From: Alphaproteobacteria bacterium
GTDB taxonomy: Bacteria; Pseudomonadota; Alphaproteobacteria; SP197
Direction of reading: 5' to 3'
Length of the DNA: 64,000 nt
NCBI GenBank assembly: GCA_964291415.2
Contig: OZ219918.1
Coordinates: forward strand, 64,001 to 128,000
Positions 18,690 to 52,411 of this stretch are shown piece by piece; position 1 is the first letter of the stretch; the number at the start of each line of letters is the position of its first letter. Both the position numbers and the translations under genes were made by a program. The notes beneath the pieces are model-generated. The model had not been told where the DNA came from and ran no database searches. It was given only the letters and a program-made list of their open reading frames with translations.

Positions 18690-19906
18690 GGCGGCGCCTC
18701 TTCTTCCAGGTCTATCTCACGTTTCTTTCGATCATCGTCCTCTTTGGCGTGCTGACCGCGCTGGCATGGTGGTTCATCCCCGATGAACACCGGGCGGGCG
18801 ATTTCACCCGGGGCATGGGGTCCTATCTCCAGGAGACGCTGCCGCCTGTCGGAGCGCCACGCCACCAAATCGACGCCCATCTCGCCCGCCTGGCGGAGCA
18901 CTTCGACGTCAACCTCGTCCTGCTGGCTCCCGACGGTGCCATCCTGGGGCGTTCCGGCTCCGGGGAGGAGAGGCGGCACCGCCGGCACGCCATCATGCTT
19001 TCCGACGGACGGACCATGGAGGTCGTCTGGTCGAAGGATGGTGTCTCCGGAGCCGGATTCATCGTCGTTCCCGGGCTTCTCGCGCTGGCTGCCGCCATCG
19101 GCGCCTGGCCCCTGTCGCGCCGCCTCGCCGGCCGTCTCGAGCGGCTGAAGTCCAGGGTCGAGGCCCTGGGTTCAGGGGACCTACAGGCGCGTGTCAAGGT
19201 CGAGGGCAGGGACGAGATCGCCGCCCTCGCGACGAGCTTCAACCACGCCGCCGGGCGTATCGAGGACCTTGTGGAGGCCCAGCGCAACACCCTGGCGGCA
19301 GCATCCCATGAACTGCGATCTCCGCTGGCGAGGATCGCCATGGCCACAGGATTGCTCGCCGACACAGCGGATCCACAACTGGTCGCCAGGATCGAGCGCG
19401 ACATTGCGGAGCTCGATCAGCTGATTGACCAAATCCTGCTCGGCAGCCGCCTCGAGATCGAGGAGGGACCGGCCCGTCTCGACGAGATCGATCTTGGCGC
19501 ACTCGCCGCCGAGGAGGCGGCACGCTTCGAGGTCGCGTTCACTGGCGGCACGGCCGTGATCGAGGCCGAGGAACACCTGGTCCGTCACCTCGTGCGCAAC
19601 CTTCTCGGCAATGCTCGGCGTCATGCCGCGGGAAGTCCAGTGAGCGTCGAAGTCGCGGCTGACGGACCAGGGGTGCGCCTTCGTGTCGCCGACAGGGGCC
19701 CCGGGGTGAGCGAATCCATGAGGGAGAGCATCTTCGAGCCGTTCCGCTCCTTCGCCGCTGATGGCACGGGTGCCGGTCTCGGTCTCTATCTGGTGCGGCG
19801 CATCGCGAGACGCTACGGTGGCGACGCAGTCTGCCTCGAGAGGCCAGGCGGTGGCGCGCTCTTCGACGTCAGCCTGCCTGCCAAGGAAGAGGAGCAGGGC
19901 CCATGA
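18686..19906 (+). CDS. HAMP-domain sensor histidine kinase
   Basis: Two TM segments, HAMP, SHELRSPL H-box, N-box NLLGNA, DRGPG, GAGLGL. Confidence 0.93.
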   Translation: MRRRLFFQVYLTFLSIIVLFGVLTALAWWFIPDEHRAGDFTRGMGSYLQETLPPVGAPRHQIDAHLARLAEHFDVNLVLLAPDGAILGRSGSGEERRHRRHAIMLSDGRTMEVVWSKDGVSGAGFIVVPGLLALAAAIGAWPLSRRLAGRLERLKSRVEALGSGDLQARVKVEGRDEIAALATSFNHAAGRIEDLVEAQRNTLAAASHELRSPLARIAMATGLLADTADPQLVARIERDIAELDQLIDQILLGSRLEIEEGPARLDEIDLGALAAEEAARFEVAFTGGTAVIEAEEHLVRHLVRNLLGNARRHAAGSPVSVEVAADGPGVRLRVADRGPGVSESMRESIFEPFRSFAADGTGAGLGLYLVRRIARRYGGDAVCLERPGGGALFDVSLPAKEEEQGP

Positions 19907-20533
19907 CAAGCACGCTCGATGCCGGCGGCTTTGACGTCTCTGCCGAGCACTCGACCACGCTGCCCTCGAGCTGGTACCGCGATCCCGCCATCTGGCGCCT
20001 CGAGCACGAGGCGATCTTCTACCGCAGCTGGTGGTATCTTGGACATGTCAGCGATCTCCCCCGACGCGGCGACTACCTCACCGGCAGGATTGCCGATCAG
20101 AATGTTCTCGTCATCAGGGGTCACGACGGGGTGTTGCGCGCCTTTCACAACGTGTGCAGCCACCGCGCTCATCCGCTGCTCGAGGGCTGCGGCAACACGG
20201 CCTTCATCACCTGCCCCTACCACCAGTGGACCTACGACGCGAACGGCCGCTTTCGCAACGGCCGGGGATGCGAGCCCCTGAGGGAGTGGACTGACGCGAA
20301 CGCCGACCTCAAGCCTGTGCGGCTCGAGGACTATGGCGGCTTTCTCTTCGTCAACCTCGATGCCGGTGCGATCCCCCTCATCGACCAGGCGGGGCGCTTT
20401 CTCGAGAACATGCGCCGCGCCTGTCCGCGGTTGCCGGACCTGGTGCGCGCCTGTCGCTGGGAAGTCGACGTGGCGGCGAACTGGAAGACGGTGATCGACA
20501 AGGGGATTACATACGTAACTTGACAGAATCGAC

Positions 20534-20562
20534 TTGACATCCAGTGGTGTTATCGGCATGAT
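20534..20562 (+). promoter_or_regulatory. Putative sigma70 promoter for tnpB
   Basis: TTGACA-17nt-CATGAT just inside the left TIR, about 40 nt upstream of ATG 20604. Confidence 0.55.
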
Positions 20563-21689
20563 TTCGCGAAGTAAATCAGTGTCCGCAACACCGGAGTCCC
20601 CGCATGTCGTCCTCTGTCACCTATCGACAGATCACCTTTCGCCTGCTGCCCGAGAAGCGCAGCACCTGGCGGCGGCTGGACGCCATGCTCGACGCGCAGC
20701 GCTGTCTCTACAACGCGGCGCTCGAGGAACGGATCGACTGCTACCGGAAGACCGGGAAGTCACTCACCTACTTCGATCAGGCAAAGTCCCTGACCTTGTG
20801 CCGGAAGGTTCTGCCGGACATGGCTGCGATGCCGGTGGCCATCCAGCGAGGGACGCTCAAGCGCCTCGATCATGCCTTCAAGGGGTTCTTCCAGCGGGTG
20901 AGCCAAGGTGGGGCCGGGTTCCCCCGGTTCCAGGGACGCCGGCATTTCAACAGCCTGTCCGTGGTCTCCGGCGTCAGGGTCGAGGGCAACCGTCTGCGCA
21001 TCCCCGGCCTGGGCTGGCTCACCATTCGCCGCCGGGGCGGCAATCCCTGGCCGCAGGGCACGCCGGTGAGCGCGGTTCTCAAGCGCGAGGAGGGACGCTG
21101 GAAGGCGGTGGTATGCCATGCGGTGTCTCTGCCGGAACCGGACGACAACGGCCATGCCGTCGGCGTGGACATGAATGCGGGCCAGGTGGCGACCTCGGAC
21201 GGGGAGATCCTGCGCCTGGAGAGGAGCCGGCGTCTTGAGGCCCGCGCCCGGCGCTATGCCAGGCAGCTGGCGCGGCAGCGCCGTGGCAGCAGACGCCGGG
21301 AGAAGACGCGGCGGCGTCTGTCGAAGACCACCCGGCGCATGGCGATGAAGCGCCATGACTGGCAGCACCATGTCAGCCGCCGCCTGGCGGATGCGGCCGG
21401 CACGGTGGTGGTCGAGGATCTGAAGGTCCGCAACATGACCCGCAGCGTCAGGGGCACGAAGGAGGAGCCGGGACGCCACGTGCGCTCCAAGGCGTCATCC
21501 TGGAGACGGGCTGGTCGTCGTTCCGGAGAATGCTGGACTACAAGGCGCGCCGCGTCATCGCGGTGAACCCGGCCTGGACCAGCCAGACCTGTGCAGCGTG
21601 CGGCGTCGCAAGCGCCCAATCACGCAGGACGCGGGATCTCTTTCAATGCGTGGCGTGCGGCCATGCGGATCATGCCGACCTTGTATGAC

Positions 21690-21989
21690 CGGGTTTCATT
21701 CCCGTGATCACGTCATCCACAGCGGTTGGGATTGGGAAAGTGTGGACAACTGCGGTTGTGTAGGAGCTGTCCGGTCTATGGTTTCAGAGAGATTCCGCTC
21801 CCCTGCGCGAGGGCGCACAGGGGAGCGGGGTGCGGAGATCTCACGATCCCCGCGGAGGTCGGTCGGAGCCGACCTGGCTTTGTAGAGCCGTCATTGAGCT
21901 TGGTCGGCCGGCCTCCCTTGACGTCCCTCGCGTCCTGAATGGATGCCTGGGCTTGGACCGTATCATCACAAGGCGAGGAGCAAGGGACG
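21690..21989 (+). ncRNA. Bridge RNA of the IS110 element (5' boundary approximate)
   Basis: Target loop closed by 21854-21865/21905-21916 with LTG GCCGACCT (21868-21875) and RTG CATTGAG (21892-21898); donor loop closed by CCTCGC/GCGAGG with LDG ATGGATGC (21939-21946) and RDG ACAAG (21968-21972). Confidence 0.8.
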
Positions 21990-22902
21990 ATGGTTAAGGT
22001 AGTGGCAGGGATCGATGTCGGCAAGGCCAGCCTGGACATCTGCGCGGCGGGCAGACGCGTCGTTTTGCCAACGACGCCACGAGCTGGCGGGCGCTGGGTG
22101 CGTGGCTTCGGGGTCTCGAGGTGAGCCGGGTGGTGATGGAGGCGACGGGCCGCTATCACCGCAGGGTTCACCAGTGTCTTCATGACCGGGGCTTCGAGGT
22201 CATCGTGATCAACCCGTTGCGGGCCCGGCGCTTCGCCGAGGTGATGGGCCATCTGGCCAAGACCGACCGCGTCGACGCGTTGATGCTGGCCAGGCTGGGG
22301 ACGGCGCTGGGCGACGATCTTGAGCCGGTGGCCCCTCAGGAGGCCTTCCTCAACCGCTTGGAGGATCTCCTGGTGGTGCGCGCCAGGCATGTCGATACGC
22401 GGACCATGCTGAGGCAGGTGGCGGGTGAGGTGGACGGCGAGGGCGAGACCCTCACACGGGCCACGATCGCCGATCTCGACGAAAGGATTGCCGCACTGGA
22501 TGCGGCGATCGAAGCGCTGATCGCCGGTGATCCCGAACAGGCCGAGCGGTACAGCATCCTGATCTCGATCCCCGGCGTCGGTCCGGTGACCGCCGCGGCC
22601 CTTCTTTGCTGGATGCCCGAACTCGGCAGTCTCGAGGGTCGCCAGGCGGCAGCGTTGATCGGGGTGGCGCCGGTTGCCGACGACAGCGGCCAGCACCACG
22701 GCGCCCGGCACATTCGCGGCGGGCGCCGCAGGCCACGCGATCTCCTGTTCATGGCCGCGACTTCGGCGTCACGCTACAATCAGGATCTCGCCATCGTGTT
22801 CCAACGCCTCAAGGCCGCCGGCAAGGCCCACAAGGTGGCGATCGTTGCCGTGATGCGCAAACTCATCGCGCTGGCGAACGTCCTGTTGCGGGAACAGCGC
22901 TG
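21990..22902 (+). pseudogene. IS110 recombinase/transposase; 1-nt frameshift near 22055, 3' end disrupted
   Basis: GIDVGK in one frame, then RRFAND...VVMEATG, KTDRVDA, SIPGVG, DDSG, GGR, AVMRKL in another. Confidence 0.88.
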
Positions 22903-22948
22903 CCGCCTGAAGCACCGGCACGCTCACCGGCGTGAAGGAGACTCCCTC

Positions 22949-23245
22949 ATGGCCCTCACGCCTGCAGAGAAGCAGCGCCGTTATCGGGAACGGCTCAAGG
23001 CCGGCATGTCTCCCGTGCGCACCCGCAAGCTCCGTGACCGACGCTCGCGGGCCCAACGCTGGTGCGATGCGGTGGCCGAACTCGGCGCACTGCAGGAGCA
23101 CTATCGGGACTGTCTCGACAGGCTCCCGGACTCGCTGCACGACACAGCCTATGGAGAGCGCCTGCAGATCATCGTCGAGGCCGACATCGAGGCCCTCGAG
23201 GAGATCGAGCCTCCGCGCGGCTACGGACGGACACATGACACATGA
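22949..23245 (+). CDS. Small hypothetical mobile-element-associated protein (basic TPAEKQRRYRER N-terminus)
   Basis: GAAGGAG RBS, 98 aa; in frame with the truncated IS110 gene but unrelated to it. Confidence 0.6.
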   Translation: MALTPAEKQRRYRERLKAGMSPVRTRKLRDRRSRAQRWCDAVAELGALQEHYRDCLDRLPDSLHDTAYGERLQIIVEADIEALEEIEPPRGYGRTHDT

Positions 23246-23488
23246 CACCTGGAGCCCCATTGTGCGCGGTAACGTTCTGACTGTGGTCACAATGCCCGGC
23301 ACCCTCATGCCGGGTAACGTTACCGCAATCAATGGCGAACACCCCACTCATGCTGCCGGGCGAACTCAACGTCTCCCTGGCCACGGGGCGTAGACACCGC
23401 AATGTCGGAACGTCAGACCGCATGGGGACAGACCAGGGAAACATCTTCACGCACGCTCACAAAAACCTTGCACCGAAACATGGATGCT

Positions 23489-23640
23489 CAATGCAGCGGC
23501 GAACATTCTGGCCTCGGGGACTGGGGCATCTGCGCGGGGAGGTTGCCGGGTTGCCGGGCCTGTGAACCGCGAAATCGATCGGAGGATGGCAGCATGACGC
23601 TGTCAACTTCTCGATATAAGTCCCATCGACAACAATCACG
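23489..23640 (+). ncRNA. Putative TnpB omega-RNA (scaffold overlapping the tnpB 3' end and right TIR; guide from the flank)
   Basis: Hairpin GCCTC-GGGGACT-GGGGC (23511-23527) whose loop GGGACT is complementary to the terminal AGTCCC (23619-23624); CGCGG/CCGCG stem; boundaries inferred. Confidence 0.6.
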
Positions 23641-24150
23641 AGTGCTACCACTGCGATGTCAATCACCGCTCGCTGATGGAACTCGTCGACTATGACGGCC
23701 AGGCCGCATGGTCCGATGACGGCATCACCTTCAGCCACAGGATCACCGCCAGGGATCTCGACAACACGGCCTATCGCCTCGAAGCGGCGGACGTTGAACA
23801 GCCCGAAGCCCTCTTCGGCTATATCTGGCCCACCGCAATCCCCCTCATGTACCCGGGCAGCCCCCATCTGGCGATGTTCCAGGTTCTGCCCACCGGCCCC
23901 GAAACCACCCGCGAGAGATGGGACTTCTACTTCACGTCCCGCGAGCCCTCCGAACTCGAGAGGCGGTTCATGGACTACATCCGCACCGTCCTCGTGGTCG
24001 AGGATGTCCGGCTCTGCGAGAACGTCCAGCAGGGTCTCCACTCGCTCGGCTACCACCAGGGACGGTTCGTCGTCGACAGGGATCACCCCGAATTCAGTGA
24101 GCACCACGTGCACTTCTTCCAGTCCATGGTGCGCGACTCGCTGAAGTCCG

Positions 24151-25059
24151 TCACGGCGTGACCGGAACGAGGCGCCCCAGGACAAGTCCGGCAAAGACCA
24201 GGAGGCCAATCCGGTTGTTGGCGGAAAAGGCCCTGTGGCAGGAGGCCGGGTCATCGAGATCGACGGTGACGAGCTGCCTTGCCAGATCGGCGGCGGCGAC
24301 GGCGAGGACCACCAGGAAGGGCCACCCGGTCCCTGTCAGGTAACCGGCCAGGGCTGCCCCGGCAACGAAGACGCCGTAGAAGAGACCGGTGAGGGGTTTC
24401 GAGCTCTCGCCGAAGGCAAGGGCCGTCGACTTCACGCCGACCCGCTCGTCATCCGTCTTGTCCTGGTGGGCATAGATCGTGTCGTAACCGATCGTCCATG
24501 CGATGGCGGCGAGGTAAAGCACCAGGGGTTCCGGTGAGAGCGCGCCCCTGACCGCGACCCAGCCCACCAGGGCCCCCCAGCTGAAGGCGAGGCCGAGAAA
24601 GAGCTGCGGCCAGTAGGTGACGCGTTTCATGAAGGGATAGATGACCACCAGGCCAAGGGAGGCGAGCCCAGTGATGATCGCTGCCTGGTTGAGCTGGAGA
24701 AGCACGATCAATCCTGCGGCAAGCAGCAGGCCAAGGAAGACCAGGGCGCCTGGCAGCGTCACGGCGCCACTGGCGAGGGGACGGTCGCGGGTCCGCTCAA
24801 CCCGGGCGTCGATCCGCCGGTCGACGATGTCGTTGACGATGCAGCCGGCGGACCGCATCACCACGGCTCCGGCGGCGAAGAGGCCAAGGAGCGTCCAGTC
24901 CGGCCATCCAGGCGAAGCCAGGGCAACCGCCCACCAGCAGGGCCACATCAGGAGCCAGAAGCCAGCGGGCCTGTCGACGCGCGCCAGTTGCAGCCACGGT
25001 CGCCACTCGACGGGCGCCCGTGCGTTGACCCACTCCCTGAAGAACGGACGCCGGCTCAT
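24151..25059 (-). CDS. ubiA: 4-hydroxybenzoate octaprenyltransferase
   Basis: RVDRPAG, NDIVDRRID..VERT..RPLASG, YDTIYAHQD. Confidence 0.95.
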   Translation of the reverse strand: MSRRPFFREWVNARAPVEWRPWLQLARVDRPAGFWLLMWPCWWAVALASPGWPDWTLLGLFAAGAVVMRSAGCIVNDIVDRRIDARVERTRDRPLASGAVTLPGALVFLGLLLAAGLIVLLQLNQAAIITGLASLGLVVIYPFMKRVTYWPQLFLGLAFSWGALVGWVAVRGALSPEPLVLYLAAIAWTIGYDTIYAHQDKTDDERVGVKSTALAFGESSKPLTGLFYGVFVAGAALAGYLTGTGWPFLVVLAVAAADLARQLVTVDLDDPASCHRAFSANNRIGLLVFAGLVLGRLVPVTP

Positions 25060-48038: not shown

Positions 48039-50174
48039 ATGACGGAGTTTCCAGAAGCCTGGCGCTCCCAGGCCGCGAAGGAACTCAAGGGCGGTTCTGC
48101 CGAGGATCTCGTCAGGGAGACGGCCGAGGGCATTGCCGTCAAGCCGCTCTACACCGAGGCGGACCTCGAGACCCTTGGCCATTCCGCCACCCTGCCCGGG
48201 CTCTTTCCCTACGTGCGTGGCGTGCGTGCGACGATGTACGCCAACAGGCCCTGGACCATCCGTCAGTACGCGGGGTTCTCGACCGCCGGCGAATCCAACG
48301 CCTTCTATCGACAGGCCCTGGCCGGGGGGCAGAAGGGACTGTCGGTGGCCTTCGATCTGGCCACCCACCGCGGCTATGACAGCGACCACCCCAGGGTGGC
48401 CGGTGACGTCGGCAAGGCGGGTGTGGCCATCGACACCGTCGAGGACATGAAGATCCTGTTCGACGGCATTCCCCTCGACGGGATGTCCGTCTCCATGACC
48501 ATGAACGGGGCTGTCCTGCCGGTGCTCGCCATGTTCGTCGTGGCGGCAGAGGAGCAGGGCGTCGCCCCGGACCGCCTGACCGGGACCATCCAGAACGACA
48601 TCCTCAAGGAGTTCATGGTCCGCAACACCTACATCTATCCGCCGGCGCCCAGCATGCGCATCGTCGCCGACATCATTGCCTGGAGCGCGGCGTCGATGCC
48701 CCGCTTCAACTCGATTTCCATCAGCGGCTATCACATGCAGGAAGCGGGGGCGACGGCGGTCCAGGAGCTTGCCTACACCCTTGCCGACGGGGTCGAATAC
48801 GTGCGTGCCGCCCGTGACCGCGGTCTTGACATCGACACCTTCGCGCCCCGGCTTTCCTTCTTCTTCGGCATCGGCATGAACTTCTTCATGGAGATCGCCA
48901 AGCTTCGTGCGGCGAGGCTGTTGTGGGCACGGCTCATGGAGCCCTTCAACCCCGAGGACCCGCGATCCCTGATGCTGCGCACCCACTGCCAGACCAGCGG
49001 CGTTTCGCTGACCGAACAGGATCCCTTCAACAACATCGTGCGCACCACCGTCGAGGCCATGGCGGCCGTGCTCGGAGGCACCCAGAGCCTCCACACCAAC
49101 AGCTTTGACGAGGCCCTGGCGCTCCCCGGCGACGAGGCGTCCCGCATCGCCCGCAACACGCAGCTGATTCTCGCCGGTGAAACCGGCATTCCCCATGTCG
49201 TCGATCCTCTCGGCGGCAGCTACTTCGTCGAATCGCTCACCGCCTCTCTCGTCGAGGCCGCGTCGCGGTTGATCGACGAGGTCGAGGAGATGGGCGGCAT
49301 GACCCGCGCCATCGAGGTCGGCCTGCCGAAGCTGCGCATCGAGGAAAGCGCGGCGCGCCGCCAGGCACGCATCGAGCGCGGCGACGACACGGTGGTGGGT
49401 GTCAACCACTACCGGAACGAAGCGGAGCCGGAAGTCGAGATTCGCGAGATCGACAACACCGTGGTGCGCGATGCCCAGATCCGGCGCCTCGAGGAGGTGC
49501 GCCGGAGCCGTGATGACGGGGCGGTGAAGACGGCTCTCGATGCGCTTGCCGCCGGTGCCGCCGGAGACGGGAATCTCCTTGAACTTTCCATTGCCGCGGC
49601 ACGGGTGCGGGCCACGCTCGGCGAAATCTCTGATGCCCTGGAAGGCGTCTTCACCCGGCACAGCGCGGTGCTGCGGCCGGTCTCCGGAGTCTATGGCGCT
49701 GCCTGGCAGGGAGCGGAGGAGTTTAGCGAGGTGAAGGCACGTATCGACGCCTTCTCCGCCGAGGAGGGGCGGCAGCCGCGCATGCTTGTCGCCAAGCTCG
49801 GCCAGGACGGCCATGACCGGGGCGCCCGCATCATTGCCAGCGCCTTTGCCGATCTCGGTTTCGACGTCGACATCGGCCCTCTCTTCCAGACTCCCGCAGA
49901 AGCGGCGCAACAGGCCGTCGAAAGCGATGTTCATGTCATCGGCGTCTCCACCCAGGCGGCAGGTCACCGGACCCTGGTGCCGCAGCTTGTCGCTGCCCTG
50001 GCAGATCTCTCCGCAACGGACATTCAGGTCGTGGTCGGCGGCGTGGTGCCGCCACAGGACCACGCCATGCTCCGCGAAGCCGGAGTGTCGGCCATCTTCG
50101 GCCCCGGAACCCATATTCCGGATGCGGCGGCACATGTCCTCGATCTGATCCGTTCGCAGCGCCGGGCGGCCTGA
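48039..50174 (+). CDS. scpA: Methylmalonyl-CoA mutase
   Basis: [23 protein letters not shown]12-binding GQDGHDRG. Confidence 0.96.
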
Positions 50175-50178
50175 CATC

Positions 50179-51126
50179 TTGAACGCCGAGGCCCTGAGAT
50201 TCGGTGACCGCCGGGCGCTCGGGCGTGCCATCACGCTTGTCGAGTCGACGCGCGCCGAAGATGAGGAGAGGGCTGCGCGCCTGCTCGAGAGTCTTGCGCA
50301 GGTGACGCCGGCACGACGGCGCATCGGCATTTCCGGCGCCCCTGGTGTCGGCAAGTCCACGTTCATCGAGGCCTTCGGCCTGAAGGCCCTCGATGACGGC
50401 TGGCGGGTTGCCGTCATCACCATCGATCCGTCCTCGATGAGGAGCGGCGGTTCCATCCTCGGCGACAGAACCAGGATGGAGCGCCTGTCGCGCCATCCGC
50501 TGGCCTTCATCCGTTCGTCGCCGTCGCGCGGCACGCTCGGCGGGGTGGCGCGGCGCACGCGGGACGTCATCCGGCTGGTCGAGGCGGCAGGCCATGATCT
50601 CGTGATTGTCGAGACCGTCGGCGTCGGCCAGTCGGAGGTGGCGGCGGCGGCCATGACCGACATGTTCGTCGTTCTCCTCGCGCCCGGCGCCGGCGACGGC
50701 CTGCAGGGCGTCAAGCGCGGGATCATGGAGCTTGCCGACCTCGTCATCGTCAACAAGGCCGATGGCGACCTCGCCGGCATGGCGCGTCACATGGTGACGG
50801 ATTTCCGTCAGGCGCTCTCGCTCATGCGTCCCGGACGCAGCTTCTGGACGACGCGCGTGATGTCCTGTTCGGCACTCACCGGGGACGGTCTCGATGACGT
50901 AAGGGCCGCCATGGACGAGTGGTTCGACGCCGCCGGCCCTCACCTCGATGAGGAACGCCGCAGGCAGGCGGTCGAGGCCATCAGGAACGAGGTGGCCGAT
51001 CTCACCCTGGCGCGGCTGATGTCAGGTGATGGAGACGGTCATGCGTCGCGTACCCTTGCCGCCGACGTTGCCAGTGGACGCCTGCCGCTGCGGACCGCCG
51101 CAAGAAAGATCCTCGACAACACCTGA
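50179..51126 (+). CDS. meaB: Methylmalonyl-CoA mutase-associated GTPase
   Basis: GAPGVGKST, DPSS..SGGSILGD, ETVGVGQSE, NKAD. Confidence 0.95.
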   Translation: MNAEALRFGDRRALGRAITLVESTRAEDEERAARLLESLAQVTPARRRIGISGAPGVGKSTFIEAFGLKALDDGWRVAVITIDPSSMRSGGSILGDRTRMERLSRHPLAFIRSSPSRGTLGGVARRTRDVIRLVEAAGHDLVIVETVGVGQSEVAAAAMTDMFVVLLAPGAGDGLQGVKRGIMELADLVIVNKADGDLAGMARHMVTDFRQALSLMRPGRSFWTTRVMSCSALTGDGLDDVRAAMDEWFDAAGPHLDEERRRQAVEAIRNEVADLTLARLMSGDGDGHASRTLAADVASGRLPLRTAARKILDNT

Positions 51127-51259
51127 TCGGGGTTGCGCCGGCTTTGGCCGAATGCCGTCAGTCATCCGCGTCGTACCTCATTGGTCCGGGCGGCCTCGAT
51201 CTCGGCGGTGTTGCTGGTACGATGGGCGTCGTCTGTGGCGACGCCCGGGAGGACAAGGG

Positions 51260-52411
51260 ATGGACATCAGTCACGAGGCACGCCGCATCCACGCATCGTC
51301 GATCGTGATCGACACCCACGTCGACACGGTGGTGCGCTGGATCGACCTTGACGAGGACCTCGGCGTCGAGACCGGCAACGGCTACATGGATTTGCCGCTC
51401 ATGAGGCGGGGCAACCTCACGGCATCCTTCTTTGCCTGCTGCGTCGGCTTCCACCATGTCGCGGAAGGGACAGCGATACGCCGCGCTCTCGACATGATCG
51501 ACGGCGTGAAGGAGATCTGCCGGTTCTATCCGGATGACGTCGAGGTGGCCCTTGGGGCTTCGGACGTGCGGCGCATCGCCGCGGCGGGCAAGCTCGCGGT
51601 GATCATCGCGATCGAGGGCGGACATGCGATCGACGACGATCTGCGGGTTCTGCGCCAGTACTTCGATCTGGGCGTGCGCTACATGTCGTTGACCCATTTC
51701 AACACGCATGGCTGGGCCGATTCCGCGACCGATGCGGCGCGGCACGGCGGATTGAGCCCGTTCGGCCGCGACGTCGTCGCGGAGATGAACCGGATGGGCA
51801 TGATGGTCGATGTCTCGCATGCCTCCGACACGGTGTTCCGGGACGTGATCGAGATGACGAAAGCGCCGGTCATGGCCTCGCACTCGTCGATGCGGGCCCT
51901 GGTGGATCATCCCCGCAACATGTCCGACGACATGCTCCGGGCCGTTGCGGACAACGGCGGCATCGTCTGCGTGACGGCATGGCCCGAGTACATTTCACGG
52001 AGGTACTGGCAGGGGCTTGAGGATGTGGCCGACCGTCGCGCCGGACGCGGCGGCGCCAATCGGCGACAGAGCGCATCGGGCTCGACGTCGGCAATCTCGG
52101 ACCTGATGGCGATGACGGGCGGCGACGGCGCCGCGGGCTACAACGTGCTGGTCGATGCGGGGATCCCGTTTCCGTCGCTCGACGACCTGCTCCGCCACAT
52201 CGATCACGCGATCGGGGTGGCCGGCGTCGATCATGTCGGTATCGGTACCGACCATGGCGCCGTCCGTTTCGACCTCGTGGAACTCGAAGACTGCTCCAGG
52301 CTCCCCGTCCTGACCGAGGCCCTGGTGCGACGCGGCTATCGCGAGGACGACATCCGCAAGATTCTCGGTGAAAATGTCTTGCGGGTCATGGAAGACGTGA
52401 TCGGGCGCTGA
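51260..52411 (+). CDS. Membrane dipeptidase (peptidase M19) family protein
   Basis: IDTHVD, IEGG, VDVSH, ASHS, HPRN, GIGTD, ILGEN. Confidence 0.88.
   Translation: MDISHEARRIHASSIVIDTHVDTVVRWIDLDEDLGVETGNGYMDLPLMRRGNLTASFFACCVGFHHVAEGTAIRRALDMIDGVKEICRFYPDDVEVALGASDVRRIAAAGKLAVIIAIEGGHAIDDDLRVLRQYFDLGVRYMSLTHFNTHGWADSATDAARHGGLSPFGRDVVAEMNRMGMMVDVSHASDTVFRDVIEMTKAPVMASHSSMRALVDHPRNMSDDMLRAVADNGGIVCVTAWPEYISRRYWQGLEDVADRRAGRGGANRRQSASGSTSAISDLMAMTGGDGAAGYNVLVDAGIPFPSLDDLLRHIDHAIGVAGVDHVGIGTDHGAVRFDLVELEDCSRLPVLTEALVRRGYREDDIRKILGENVLRVMEDVIGR

Follow-up and report, generated by a model that had tools for sequence, protein, structure and literature searches.

A tnpB element with IS1595-type ends and a predicted omega-RNA scaffold that ends at the tip of its right inverted repeat

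We analyzed a 64,000-nucleotide stretch of DNA (the window) from an Alphaproteobacteria bacterium of the lineage SP197 (assembly GCA_964291415.2, contig OZ219918.1, positions 64,001 to 128,000 of the forward strand), in which a mobile element spanning 20502-23624 carries tnpB, the gene of a TnpB-family nuclease, as its sole cargo. We consider it probable (roughly 0.7) that this is a non-autonomous IS1595-type element moved in trans, that it carries tnpB together with an omega-RNA whose scaffold runs to the tip of the right terminal inverted repeat (TIR), that the guide starts with the target duplication, and that the empty allele is the one that would be cut. Positions refer to the window unless a contig or locus is named.

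Results

A tnpB element interrupts an oxygenase gene

The element measures ~1.33 kb without an IS110-family insertion that it has received. It is bounded by 25-bp imperfect inverted repeats and by an 8-bp target duplication, ATCGACAA, on both sides, and it splits a Rieske-type oxygenase gene, the reading frame of which runs unbroken across the predicted empty site. The features of the locus are as follows.

19903 to 20501, + strand: 5′ part of the host gene (Rieske-type oxygenase subunit), from the list of open reading frames (ORFs); it resumes at 23625.
20494 to 20501, + strand: left 8-bp target duplication, ATCGACAA, from copy comparison and empty sites.
20502 to 20526, + strand: left TIR, GGGGATTACATACGTAACTTGACAG, from the start of the match between copies; 21/25 positions agree with the TIR of a resident IS1595 element.
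20604 to 21679, + strand: 5′ part of tnpB, frameshifted (13-bp deletion near 21494) and truncated by the IS110 element.
21680 to 23486, + strand: IS110-family insertion sequence within tnpB, from alignment to an intact copy; the boundary is ambiguous by one C.
23487 to 23597, + strand: 3′ part of tnpB (LNAAANIL... to the stop codon TGA at 23595-23597), overlapping the predicted scaffold, from alignment to an intact copy.
23600 to 23624, + strand: right TIR, wholly within the predicted scaffold, from copy and TIR comparison.
23625 to 23632, + strand: right 8-bp target duplication, from copy comparison and empty sites.
23625 to 24161, + strand: 3′ part of the host oxygenase gene, from the ORF and its uninterrupted orthologs in congeners.

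The true right end lies at 23624, where four other full copies in the genome lose their match exactly; the same four begin at the base equivalent to 20502, which makes five full copies with that of the window. The left and right TIRs of the window copy agree at 17/25 positions, and those of relatives at up to 25/25. The element is mobile: 11 congeneric genomes have the oxygenase gene uninterrupted with a single 8-mer at the site (...GGTG ATCGACAA CAATCACG...), and a contig of run X4 joins the flanks of a second copy, L014, without the element (L014 1490-2830), a presence/absence polymorphism. The window copy differs from L014 at 80 positions over ~1316 aligned bases. An uninterrupted orthologous site for L014 was not found in the genus, where 4 of the 22 genomes gave partial matches only. 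The left end of the window element also has two TTGACA boxes (20521-20526 and 20534-20539) that could be -35 elements for tnpB.

The tnpB gene of the window is dead. It has two lesions, the 13-bp deletion and the IS110 insertion, which lies between the codons for the RuvC-III HAD and for LNAA and is identified by matches to Pfam DEDD_Tnp_IS110 and Transposase_20 and to NCBIfam transpos_IS110. An earlier note on this DNA, made from its letters and ORFs, had recognized neither the deletion nor the IS1595-type identity of the element. The genome holds one full IS110 copy, a relative that is 90% identical and a fragment of one end, and these few copies therefore give no basis for claiming that IS110 targets tnpB. 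The IS110 transposase reads in two frames (21939-22124 and 22121-23245) and may itself be frameshifted; in run X4, the right-end junction of IS110 with tnpB recurs as a loose end, at position 2692 of L014.

The window copy is undamaged over the last 138 nt of the element (23487-23624), and its scaffold could be served only by the four intact paralogs, each encoding an uninterrupted 399-residue TnpB (94-100% protein identity among them). The product of one of these (L014:1603-2802) matches OrfB_IS605 (PF01385, 1e-12) and Cas12f1-like_TNB (PF07282, 1.2e-18), scores 206 bits against a cut-off of 100 with NCBIfam guided_TnpB, and aligns with ISDra2 TnpB over residues 8-374 (E = 4e-32). It stays below threshold with NCBIfam IS200_TnpB (160 vs a cut-off of 425) and IS607_TnpB (95 bits vs a cut-off of 350). 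Its GVD, VED and HAD-x-NAA motifs have aligned counterparts in a designed TnpB-like nuclease, and the RuvC catalytic residues D, E and D are present, with E271 and D363 unvarying across six relatives; we presume that these residues have the roles of their ISDra2 counterparts.

Within the family, 12 of 33 genomes have TnpB relatives (E ≤ 1e-40), and all 12 belong to a single genus. Scanning 185,579 species genomes returned 594 pattern-matched stretches, 539 of which encode TnpB relatives; the best 80 were kept, and these come from Alphaproteobacteria, Gammaproteobacteria and one Rhodothermales genome, all metagenome-assembled. Together with the window and 30 loci from the family genomes they make up a set of 111 loci. 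A right end of the ...ATAAGTCCC type lies at most 70 nt from the stop codon in 98 of the 110 loci other than the window. Distinct insertions with TIRs and an exact 8-bp duplication number 49 among the 111 loci (TnpB identity 36-100%), the remainder being repeat retrievals of one place, truncated loci, or loci lacking an exact repeat. Since the search was built on it, the 8-bp duplication is present in 49/49 by construction, and independent support for it comes from the single 8-mer in the 11 natural empty sites.

The ends are of the IS1595 type

A resident 3.16-kb element of the same genome (contig 2:46358-49518) has ends of the same type (GGGGATTATATAC...TTGACA) and encodes a protein matching DDE_Tnp_IS1595, Zn_ribbon_IS1595 and NCBIfam transpos_IS1595, with a passenger gene alongside. 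The IS1595 transposase family is present in 17 of the 22 other genomes of the genus. When the TIRs of the tnpB elements were compared with those of 12 transposase-bearing elements, the best match had a median of 20/25 and a maximum of 24/25, and the differing end subtypes recur in both kinds of element. Nine transposase-bearing elements had recognizable duplications, eight of them exact and one agreeing at 7/8 positions, and all nine carry passenger genes. The tnpB element thus shares with IS1595-family insertion sequences the 8-bp duplication and inverted repeats of the GGGGATTAT type; it differs in that the passenger genes of those relatives sit beside a transposase, whereas no IS1595 transposase is encoded inside the tnpB element. 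Conversely, none of the 12 transposase-bearing elements examined carries tnpB. Lacking a transposase of its own, the tnpB element is therefore at most a non-autonomous IS1595 relative, and, judging from the shared ends and duplication length, it is probably moved in trans by IS1595 transposases such as that at contig 2:46358-49518. The corresponding ISfinder subgroup is presumably ISNwi1, with ends ggnnatTAT.

Two other classes were considered. IS200/IS605 and IS607 elements have neither inverted repeats nor a target duplication, and IS200/IS605 elements have subterminal hairpins and insert 3′ of a fixed 4-5-nt motif, as described in a review (PMC13565253). An IS200/IS605 element (IS1341 group) was ruled out by the 25-bp TIRs, by the exact 8-bp duplications in 49 insertions and by the lack of a fixed motif beyond one G. 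An IS607 element (serine recombinase) was ruled out by the presence of TIRs and a target-site duplication (TSD), and no second ORF fits the 1.33-kb element.

The loop of a conserved hairpin covaries with the end of the element

The 3′ region of the element has the following predicted RNA features.

23511 to 23624, + strand: predicted omega-RNA scaffold, ~114 nt, with its 3′ boundary at the right TIR tip, from the consensus structure and ISDra2 geometry.
23511 to 23527, + strand: stem-1 hairpin, 5 bp with a 7-nt loop, of which 23517-23522 form the 5′ strand of the putative pseudoknot; 98.7% of cells paired.
23533 to 23571, + strand: long-range helix, 23533-23536 with 23568-23571; 98.7% paired, compensatory changes in 3/4 pairs.
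23588 to 23604, + strand: terminal hairpin GGCAGC-AUGAC-GCUGUC across the stop codon and the TIR's inner edge; 81.5% paired.
23619 to 23624, + strand: AGTCCC, 3′ strand of the putative pseudoknot and tip of the TIR, from pair counts and a test of left against right tips.

The earlier note had proposed the right TIR tip as the end of the scaffold, with a hairpin loop in the 3′ coding end of tnpB pairing with the last six bases of the element. The hairpin (GCCTC-GGGGACT-GGGGC) stands at 23511-23527 with the letters given there, its loop bases GGGACT (23517-23522) are the exact reverse complement of AGTCCC (23619-23624), the left tip at 20502-20507 reads GGGGAT, and TCAA occurs at 23603-23606, all as the note had it. 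Stem 1 of the window copy has a U-G wobble; the intact paralogs read GCCTC...GAGGC. In 20000 mononucleotide shuffles of the upstream 126 nt, a complement to the terminus arose anywhere in 1064 and in the loop of a hairpin of at least 4 bp in 179. The match in a single copy is thus only modestly unlikely, and the weight rests on comparative evidence.

We aligned the last 135 nt of 78 distinct relatives and the window (alignment A2), leaving out seven of the 85 distinct ends as scaffold duplicates (L052, L068, L071, L072, L077, L107 and L132). RNAalifold recovered the stem-1 hairpin (columns 41-45 with 53-57), in which pair 43-55 switches from GC to CG in 24 sequences. The protein frame over the hairpin differs between clades (one-base gap at A2 column 37), yet the hairpin bases are kept, which points to constraint on RNA. 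The long-range helix was also recovered (columns 63-66 with 129-132), with GC/CG and AU/GC switches, and the terminal hairpin covaries as well, one pair changing from AU to GC in 21 sequences, a change visible already between the paralogs.

The six bases of the loop (columns 47-52) covary with the final six columns: of 472 cells, 90.7% are paired, against 87.6% in shuffles (0/500 reach the observed value), and 13 cells have a double change, against 2.6 expected (0/500). Sliding the partner along the alignment drops the pairing to 3-68%. Compensatory forms read from A2 are GGGAGU:ACUCCC, GGGAUU:AAUCCC (in three clades), GGGGAU:AUCCCC and GGGACA:UGUCCC, with several origins. A pair is kept through a U-G wobble in eight rows, and such wobbles argue for RNA pairing over DNA identity. 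Of 44 elements, 33 have left and right tips that are unlike; in 31 of these the right tip is the better partner of the loop, in one the left tip is, and in one the two are equal, in rows that are related and not independent. The covariation of loop and terminus that the earlier note called for is therefore found among homologs. That the loop follows the right tip in 31/33 informative elements is in line with its suggestion that the TIR has been co-opted into the scaffold, and the covariation, together with the geometry of ISDra2 taken up below, supports the right TIR tip as the scaffold end.

Three further loci resemble parts of this region. L009 (contig 1:829080-829121) is an isolated related right end, with the terminal hairpin and a TIR ending in AGTCCC, the sequence upstream being unrelated. 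L007 and L008 (contig 2:344616-344684 and contig 4:1169369-1169437) are 68-nt matches to the inner scaffold (23510-23577) at 93-96%, without tnpB or TIR.

A G precedes the left duplication

Two further features depend on the flanks of the element.

20493, + strand: G immediately 5′ of the left duplication, candidate one-base target-adjacent motif (TAM); 46/49 insertions.
23625 to 23640, + strand: predicted guide, the first 16 nt of the flank, ATCGACAACAATCACG, deduced from the scaffold end and the G at position -1.

Position -1 is G in 46/49 insertions (45/49 by automatic picking, the site of L056 having been corrected by hand). The mirror position, +9, has the complementary C in 13/49 (Fisher p = 3e-12), and the equivalent of the G is found at 5/18 ends of nine transposase-bearing elements (p = 1e-7). 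Each insertion is a separate event, and the relatedness of the elements therefore does not inflate the count. The G is native to the target, being present in 10/11 natural empty sites of the window locus, and the last base of the element is C in 78/78 A2 rows with a letter there. No two of the 49 duplications have the same 8-mer; they are A/T-rich at positions 2, 3, 6 and 7 in a roughly palindromic pattern, and none begins with G. For a longer TAM, no strong preference was detected at -2 to -12 in the 49 insertions, and an excess of A at duplication positions 1-3 is weak. The earlier note had expected a motif, CGGTG, 5′ of the left duplication; an orientation-specific signal is indeed present at -1, but it consists of a single G instead of the motif. 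A base of this kind, tied to one orientation and lying directly beside the duplication on its far side from the RNA gene, fits a TAM if the guide starts with the duplication.

The G is also present in three of four recently spread, near-identical copies in one genome (L067, L068 and L071 with G, L072 without), and a bias for G at insertion is therefore also possible. In our preferred reading, insertions behind a G alone can be driven to high frequency, and are hence the ones seen in consensus assemblies.

Within its own genome the predicted guide has its sole exact match at its own junction, and no other site matches with fewer than two mismatches; among the 11 congeners, the empty sites of two hold an exact match with a G before it.

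Discussion

A predicted guide that begins with the target duplication

The putative scaffold (23511-23624) would overlap the 3′ end of tnpB and take in the entire right inverted repeat. Its last six bases, AGUCCC, would pair with the loop of the first hairpin, forming the pseudoknot common to TnpB and Cas12 guide RNAs, and read-through into the flank would supply a guide with the target duplication as its first eight bases (ATCGACAA CAATCACG...). The empty allele holds one copy of the duplication, and the first eight guide bases would therefore match the duplicated target. Cleavage would be confined to this unoccupied allele, which offers the G, one copy of the duplication and the right flank. 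The occupied right junction would be spared because it matches the whole guide but has the invariant C of the element where the G is needed; the occupied left junction, with the G and an 8-nt match followed by divergence, would be spared too. Were the empty allele cut and then repaired by recombination with an occupied copy, the element would be copied in (homing or retention). This scheme follows the restorative-homing model for TnpB described in PMC13565253; where it departs from that model, the DDE chemistry would impose the change.

Several observations weigh against this account. Two measures of the covariation, the least sensitive to relatedness, are not significant: three pairs have a double change against 1.6 expected (58/500 shuffles), and there are eight further pair types against 6.2 (61/500). 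The three G-C pairs at the tip never vary informatively and are the same bases as the invariant tip of the TIR. A slide of -3 gives an equal covariation score (0.118) with 14 double-change cells, at 38.9% paired. The unpaired cells (44/472) include whole lineages with C.C at the second pair (13 rows), and termini reading AAGGCCC or AAGCCCC need a mismatch or a bulge to form the pseudoknot. No Rfam family was found in a scan of 19500-24500 with E up to 1, apart from a chance snoRNA-like match inside the IS110 element, and the single-sequence fold of the intact 3′ end (z = -2.27) has a minimum-energy structure without the first hairpin. Metatranscriptome contigs from four runs span the 3′ region and extend past the right end into other flanks, but strand, start, end and RNA origin are not visible in them, and they are not counted as evidence of transcription. 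As to the G, the control set consists of only nine transposase-bearing elements. The one contig with the empty site of L014 skips 1338 bases where 1337 were expected, and apparently lacks the G before the duplication; we tentatively take the missing base to be strain variation. The intact copy L016 (contig 4:1339554-1340882) has no clean 8-bp duplication, its left flank ending ...ATGAATGCATG and its right flank beginning CATGAATA. Finally, a one-base TAM would, to our knowledge, be unusual for a TnpB.

Comparison with ISDra2

The omega-RNA of ISDra2 has a 116-nt scaffold in which stem 1 pairs -116..-111 with -91..-86, and its pseudoknot pairs -5..-3 with -103..-105 in the stem-1 loop, followed by one base and then the guide at +1 (PMC10097598). 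Counted from 23624, the stem here pairs -114..-110 with -102..-98, and the loop strand -108..-103 with -6..-1. The two systems thus appear to share, besides protein homology over the full length, an RNA that overlaps the 3′ end of tnpB, a scaffold of ~115 nt ending at the transposon boundary, a stem-1 loop near -105 that pairs with the last scaffold bases, and, as predicted here, a guide taken from the right flank. They differ in that our element has 25-bp TIRs and an 8-bp duplication, where ISDra2 has subterminal hairpins and no duplication; it has no Y1 TnpA and no fixed 4-5-nt target motif, its candidate TAM being one G; and its predicted guide would begin with the duplicated target bases.

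Alternative readings

We considered whether the element could be organized like Fanzor elements, in which case the 3′ duplication would either belong to the scaffold or form a linker without a use, the guide would start at the ninth base of the flank, and the 5′ duplication with its preceding G would be the TAM. The TIR and TSD are reported to lie within the scaffold of Fanzor1 and Fanzor2, with the 5′ TSD being part of the TAM (PMC10711439, PMC13565253), and the duplications here are A/T-rich at positions 2, 3, 6 and 7. However, 49 different duplication sequences do not make a fixed scaffold part, and the A/T pattern is nearly palindromic and common to the transposase-bearing elements, and so looks like a preference of the transposase. 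The G would sit nine bases from the start of the heteroduplex, outside a guide-abutting 5-bp TAM such as that of ISDra2, and the covarying pseudoknot ends at the tip of the TIR, as compared with the one base between pseudoknot and guide in ISDra2. We consider this arrangement unlikely.

A second alternative dispenses with RNA pairing: GGGACT would be a DNA-level site for the transposase that covaries with the TIR tips, or a chance match that was inherited, the G would be an insertion preference, and there would be no guide derived from the flank. The invariance of the three tip pairs, which coincide with the conserved TIR tip, and the two non-significant measures robust to relatedness are what this explanation would expect, and the G in three of four near-identical recent copies fits an insertion bias as well as later selection. 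It does not account for a loop that tracks the right tip and not the left (31 vs 1), nor for the eight rows with U-G wobbles, which are meaningless for a DNA site, and the position of the pairing agrees with the solved pseudoknot of ISDra2. A two-fold symmetric DDE reaction should moreover give C at +9, which is found at a minority of insertions, and the transposase-bearing elements of the same family show no preference for G. We therefore give this explanation little credence, and retain a pseudoknotted RNA with a guide that begins at the duplication.

That the scaffold ends instead at the internal TCAA (23603-23606), as a relic of an IS200/IS605 right end with the terminal 18 nt of the TIR as the guide, is hardly credible: a GTCAA stretch is common among close relatives, and we take TCAA to resemble the cleavage and target motifs of IS200/IS605, which counts in its favor, but distant relatives read TTCAG, TTTAG or GGGTAG there, the stem-1 loop covaries with the terminal six bases, a guide taken from the element's own end would target the right end of every copy, and the scaffold length fits ISDra2 only when the run reaches 23624, the tip of the TIR, on which ground the internal boundary is ruled out.

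Relation to other TnpB systems and significance

TnpBs linked to DDE transposases have been described as branches DDE-1 to DDE-6 by Altae-Tran et al. 2023, with IS630 named (PMC10691335), and ISL2, IS630 and IS1031 are named in the review PMC13565253. Like the element described here, these have inverted terminal repeats and the 3′ end of tnpB near the transposon end (PMC10691335, PMC13565253), and for solo tnpB genes, ends resembling those of transposase-bearing elements have been reported, which suggests mobilization in trans (PMC10691335). They differ from our case as far as the accounts in PMC10691335 and PMC13565253 go, where no overlap of scaffold and TIR, pseudoknot with the TIR tip, duplication within the guide or TAM is given. 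The proposal that the TIR serves as RNA scaffold is supported here, but transposon-end sequence within a scaffold has precedent, as the scaffold ends at the transposon boundary in IS200/IS605 and the TIR and TSD lie within Fanzor scaffolds (PMC10711439). The reRNAs of Fanzor1 and Fanzor2 (eukaryotic and viral TIR transposons) offer a parallel, with a TnpB-family nuclease in DDE-type transposons that have TIR and TSD and with the TIR in the scaffold (PMC10711439). They differ in that a short fixed TSD is built into the Fanzor scaffold and that Fanzor1 is without a pseudoknot (PMC10711439, PMC13565253), whereas here the TSD is eight variable bases and the pseudoknot appears to be kept, ending at the tip of the TIR. 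The TSD would therefore be left to the guide, unlike in Fanzor.

What is already in print thus comprises DDE-linked TnpBs with inverted repeats, solo tnpB genes with such ends, and TIR and TSD in Fanzor scaffolds. A link between IS1595, including the names of its subgroups, and TnpB was not found in the published literature searched; the main texts of PMC10691335 and PMC13565253 do not name IS1595, and their supplementary branch lists may include the clade. A pseudoknot that uses the TIR tip, a guide that takes in a variable duplication and a single-base TAM signal were likewise not found in print, supplements lying beyond the search.

The review PMC13565253 accounts for the rarity of obligate mobile element-guided activity (OMEGA) systems in prokaryotic DDE transposons by cut-and-paste excision, which already leaves a break, and by the inflexible target recognition of OMEGA systems. 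The present clade is a concrete and widespread prokaryotic case in which this problem seems to have been solved. Tentatively, and with more doubt than attaches to the mechanism itself, we suggest that a TnpB clade may have moved from IS200/IS605 into IS1595-type DDE transposons, which insert at almost any site, that its TAM may have shrunk to a single G while the variable duplication became the TAM-proximal part of the guide, and that the nuclease may act as a gene drive for the insertion allele. If this were true, the 399-residue enzyme would be a compact nuclease that by nature needs almost no TAM. Should the G make up the entire TAM, its small size and the scarcity of limits on its targeting would give the enzyme practical interest. 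The scheme is a new twist on known selfish homing and can be tested at three points: the scaffold end at the TIR tip, the duplication as the first eight guide bases, and the G as the TAM. It also opens the question of whether the nuclease serves a DDE element by homing into naive alleles or in repair after excision.

Other IS1595-family elements

About 12 kb before the window, nine bases separate two IS1595-family elements, at contig 2:46358-49518 and 49529-51996 (L181 6359-9519 and 9529-11996). Each has an intact transposase and passenger ORFs, and the outer flanks of the pair share an A-run (GAAAAAAA / AAAAAAAA), as if the two had been inserted as one unit. In congeners, L169, L170, L171 and L180 are transposase-bearing IS1595 elements of 2.5-3.9 kb with large passenger genes, among them genes for proteins of 815 and 860 residues; one congeneric passenger has what we take to be a DPPF-type DNA methyltransferase motif.

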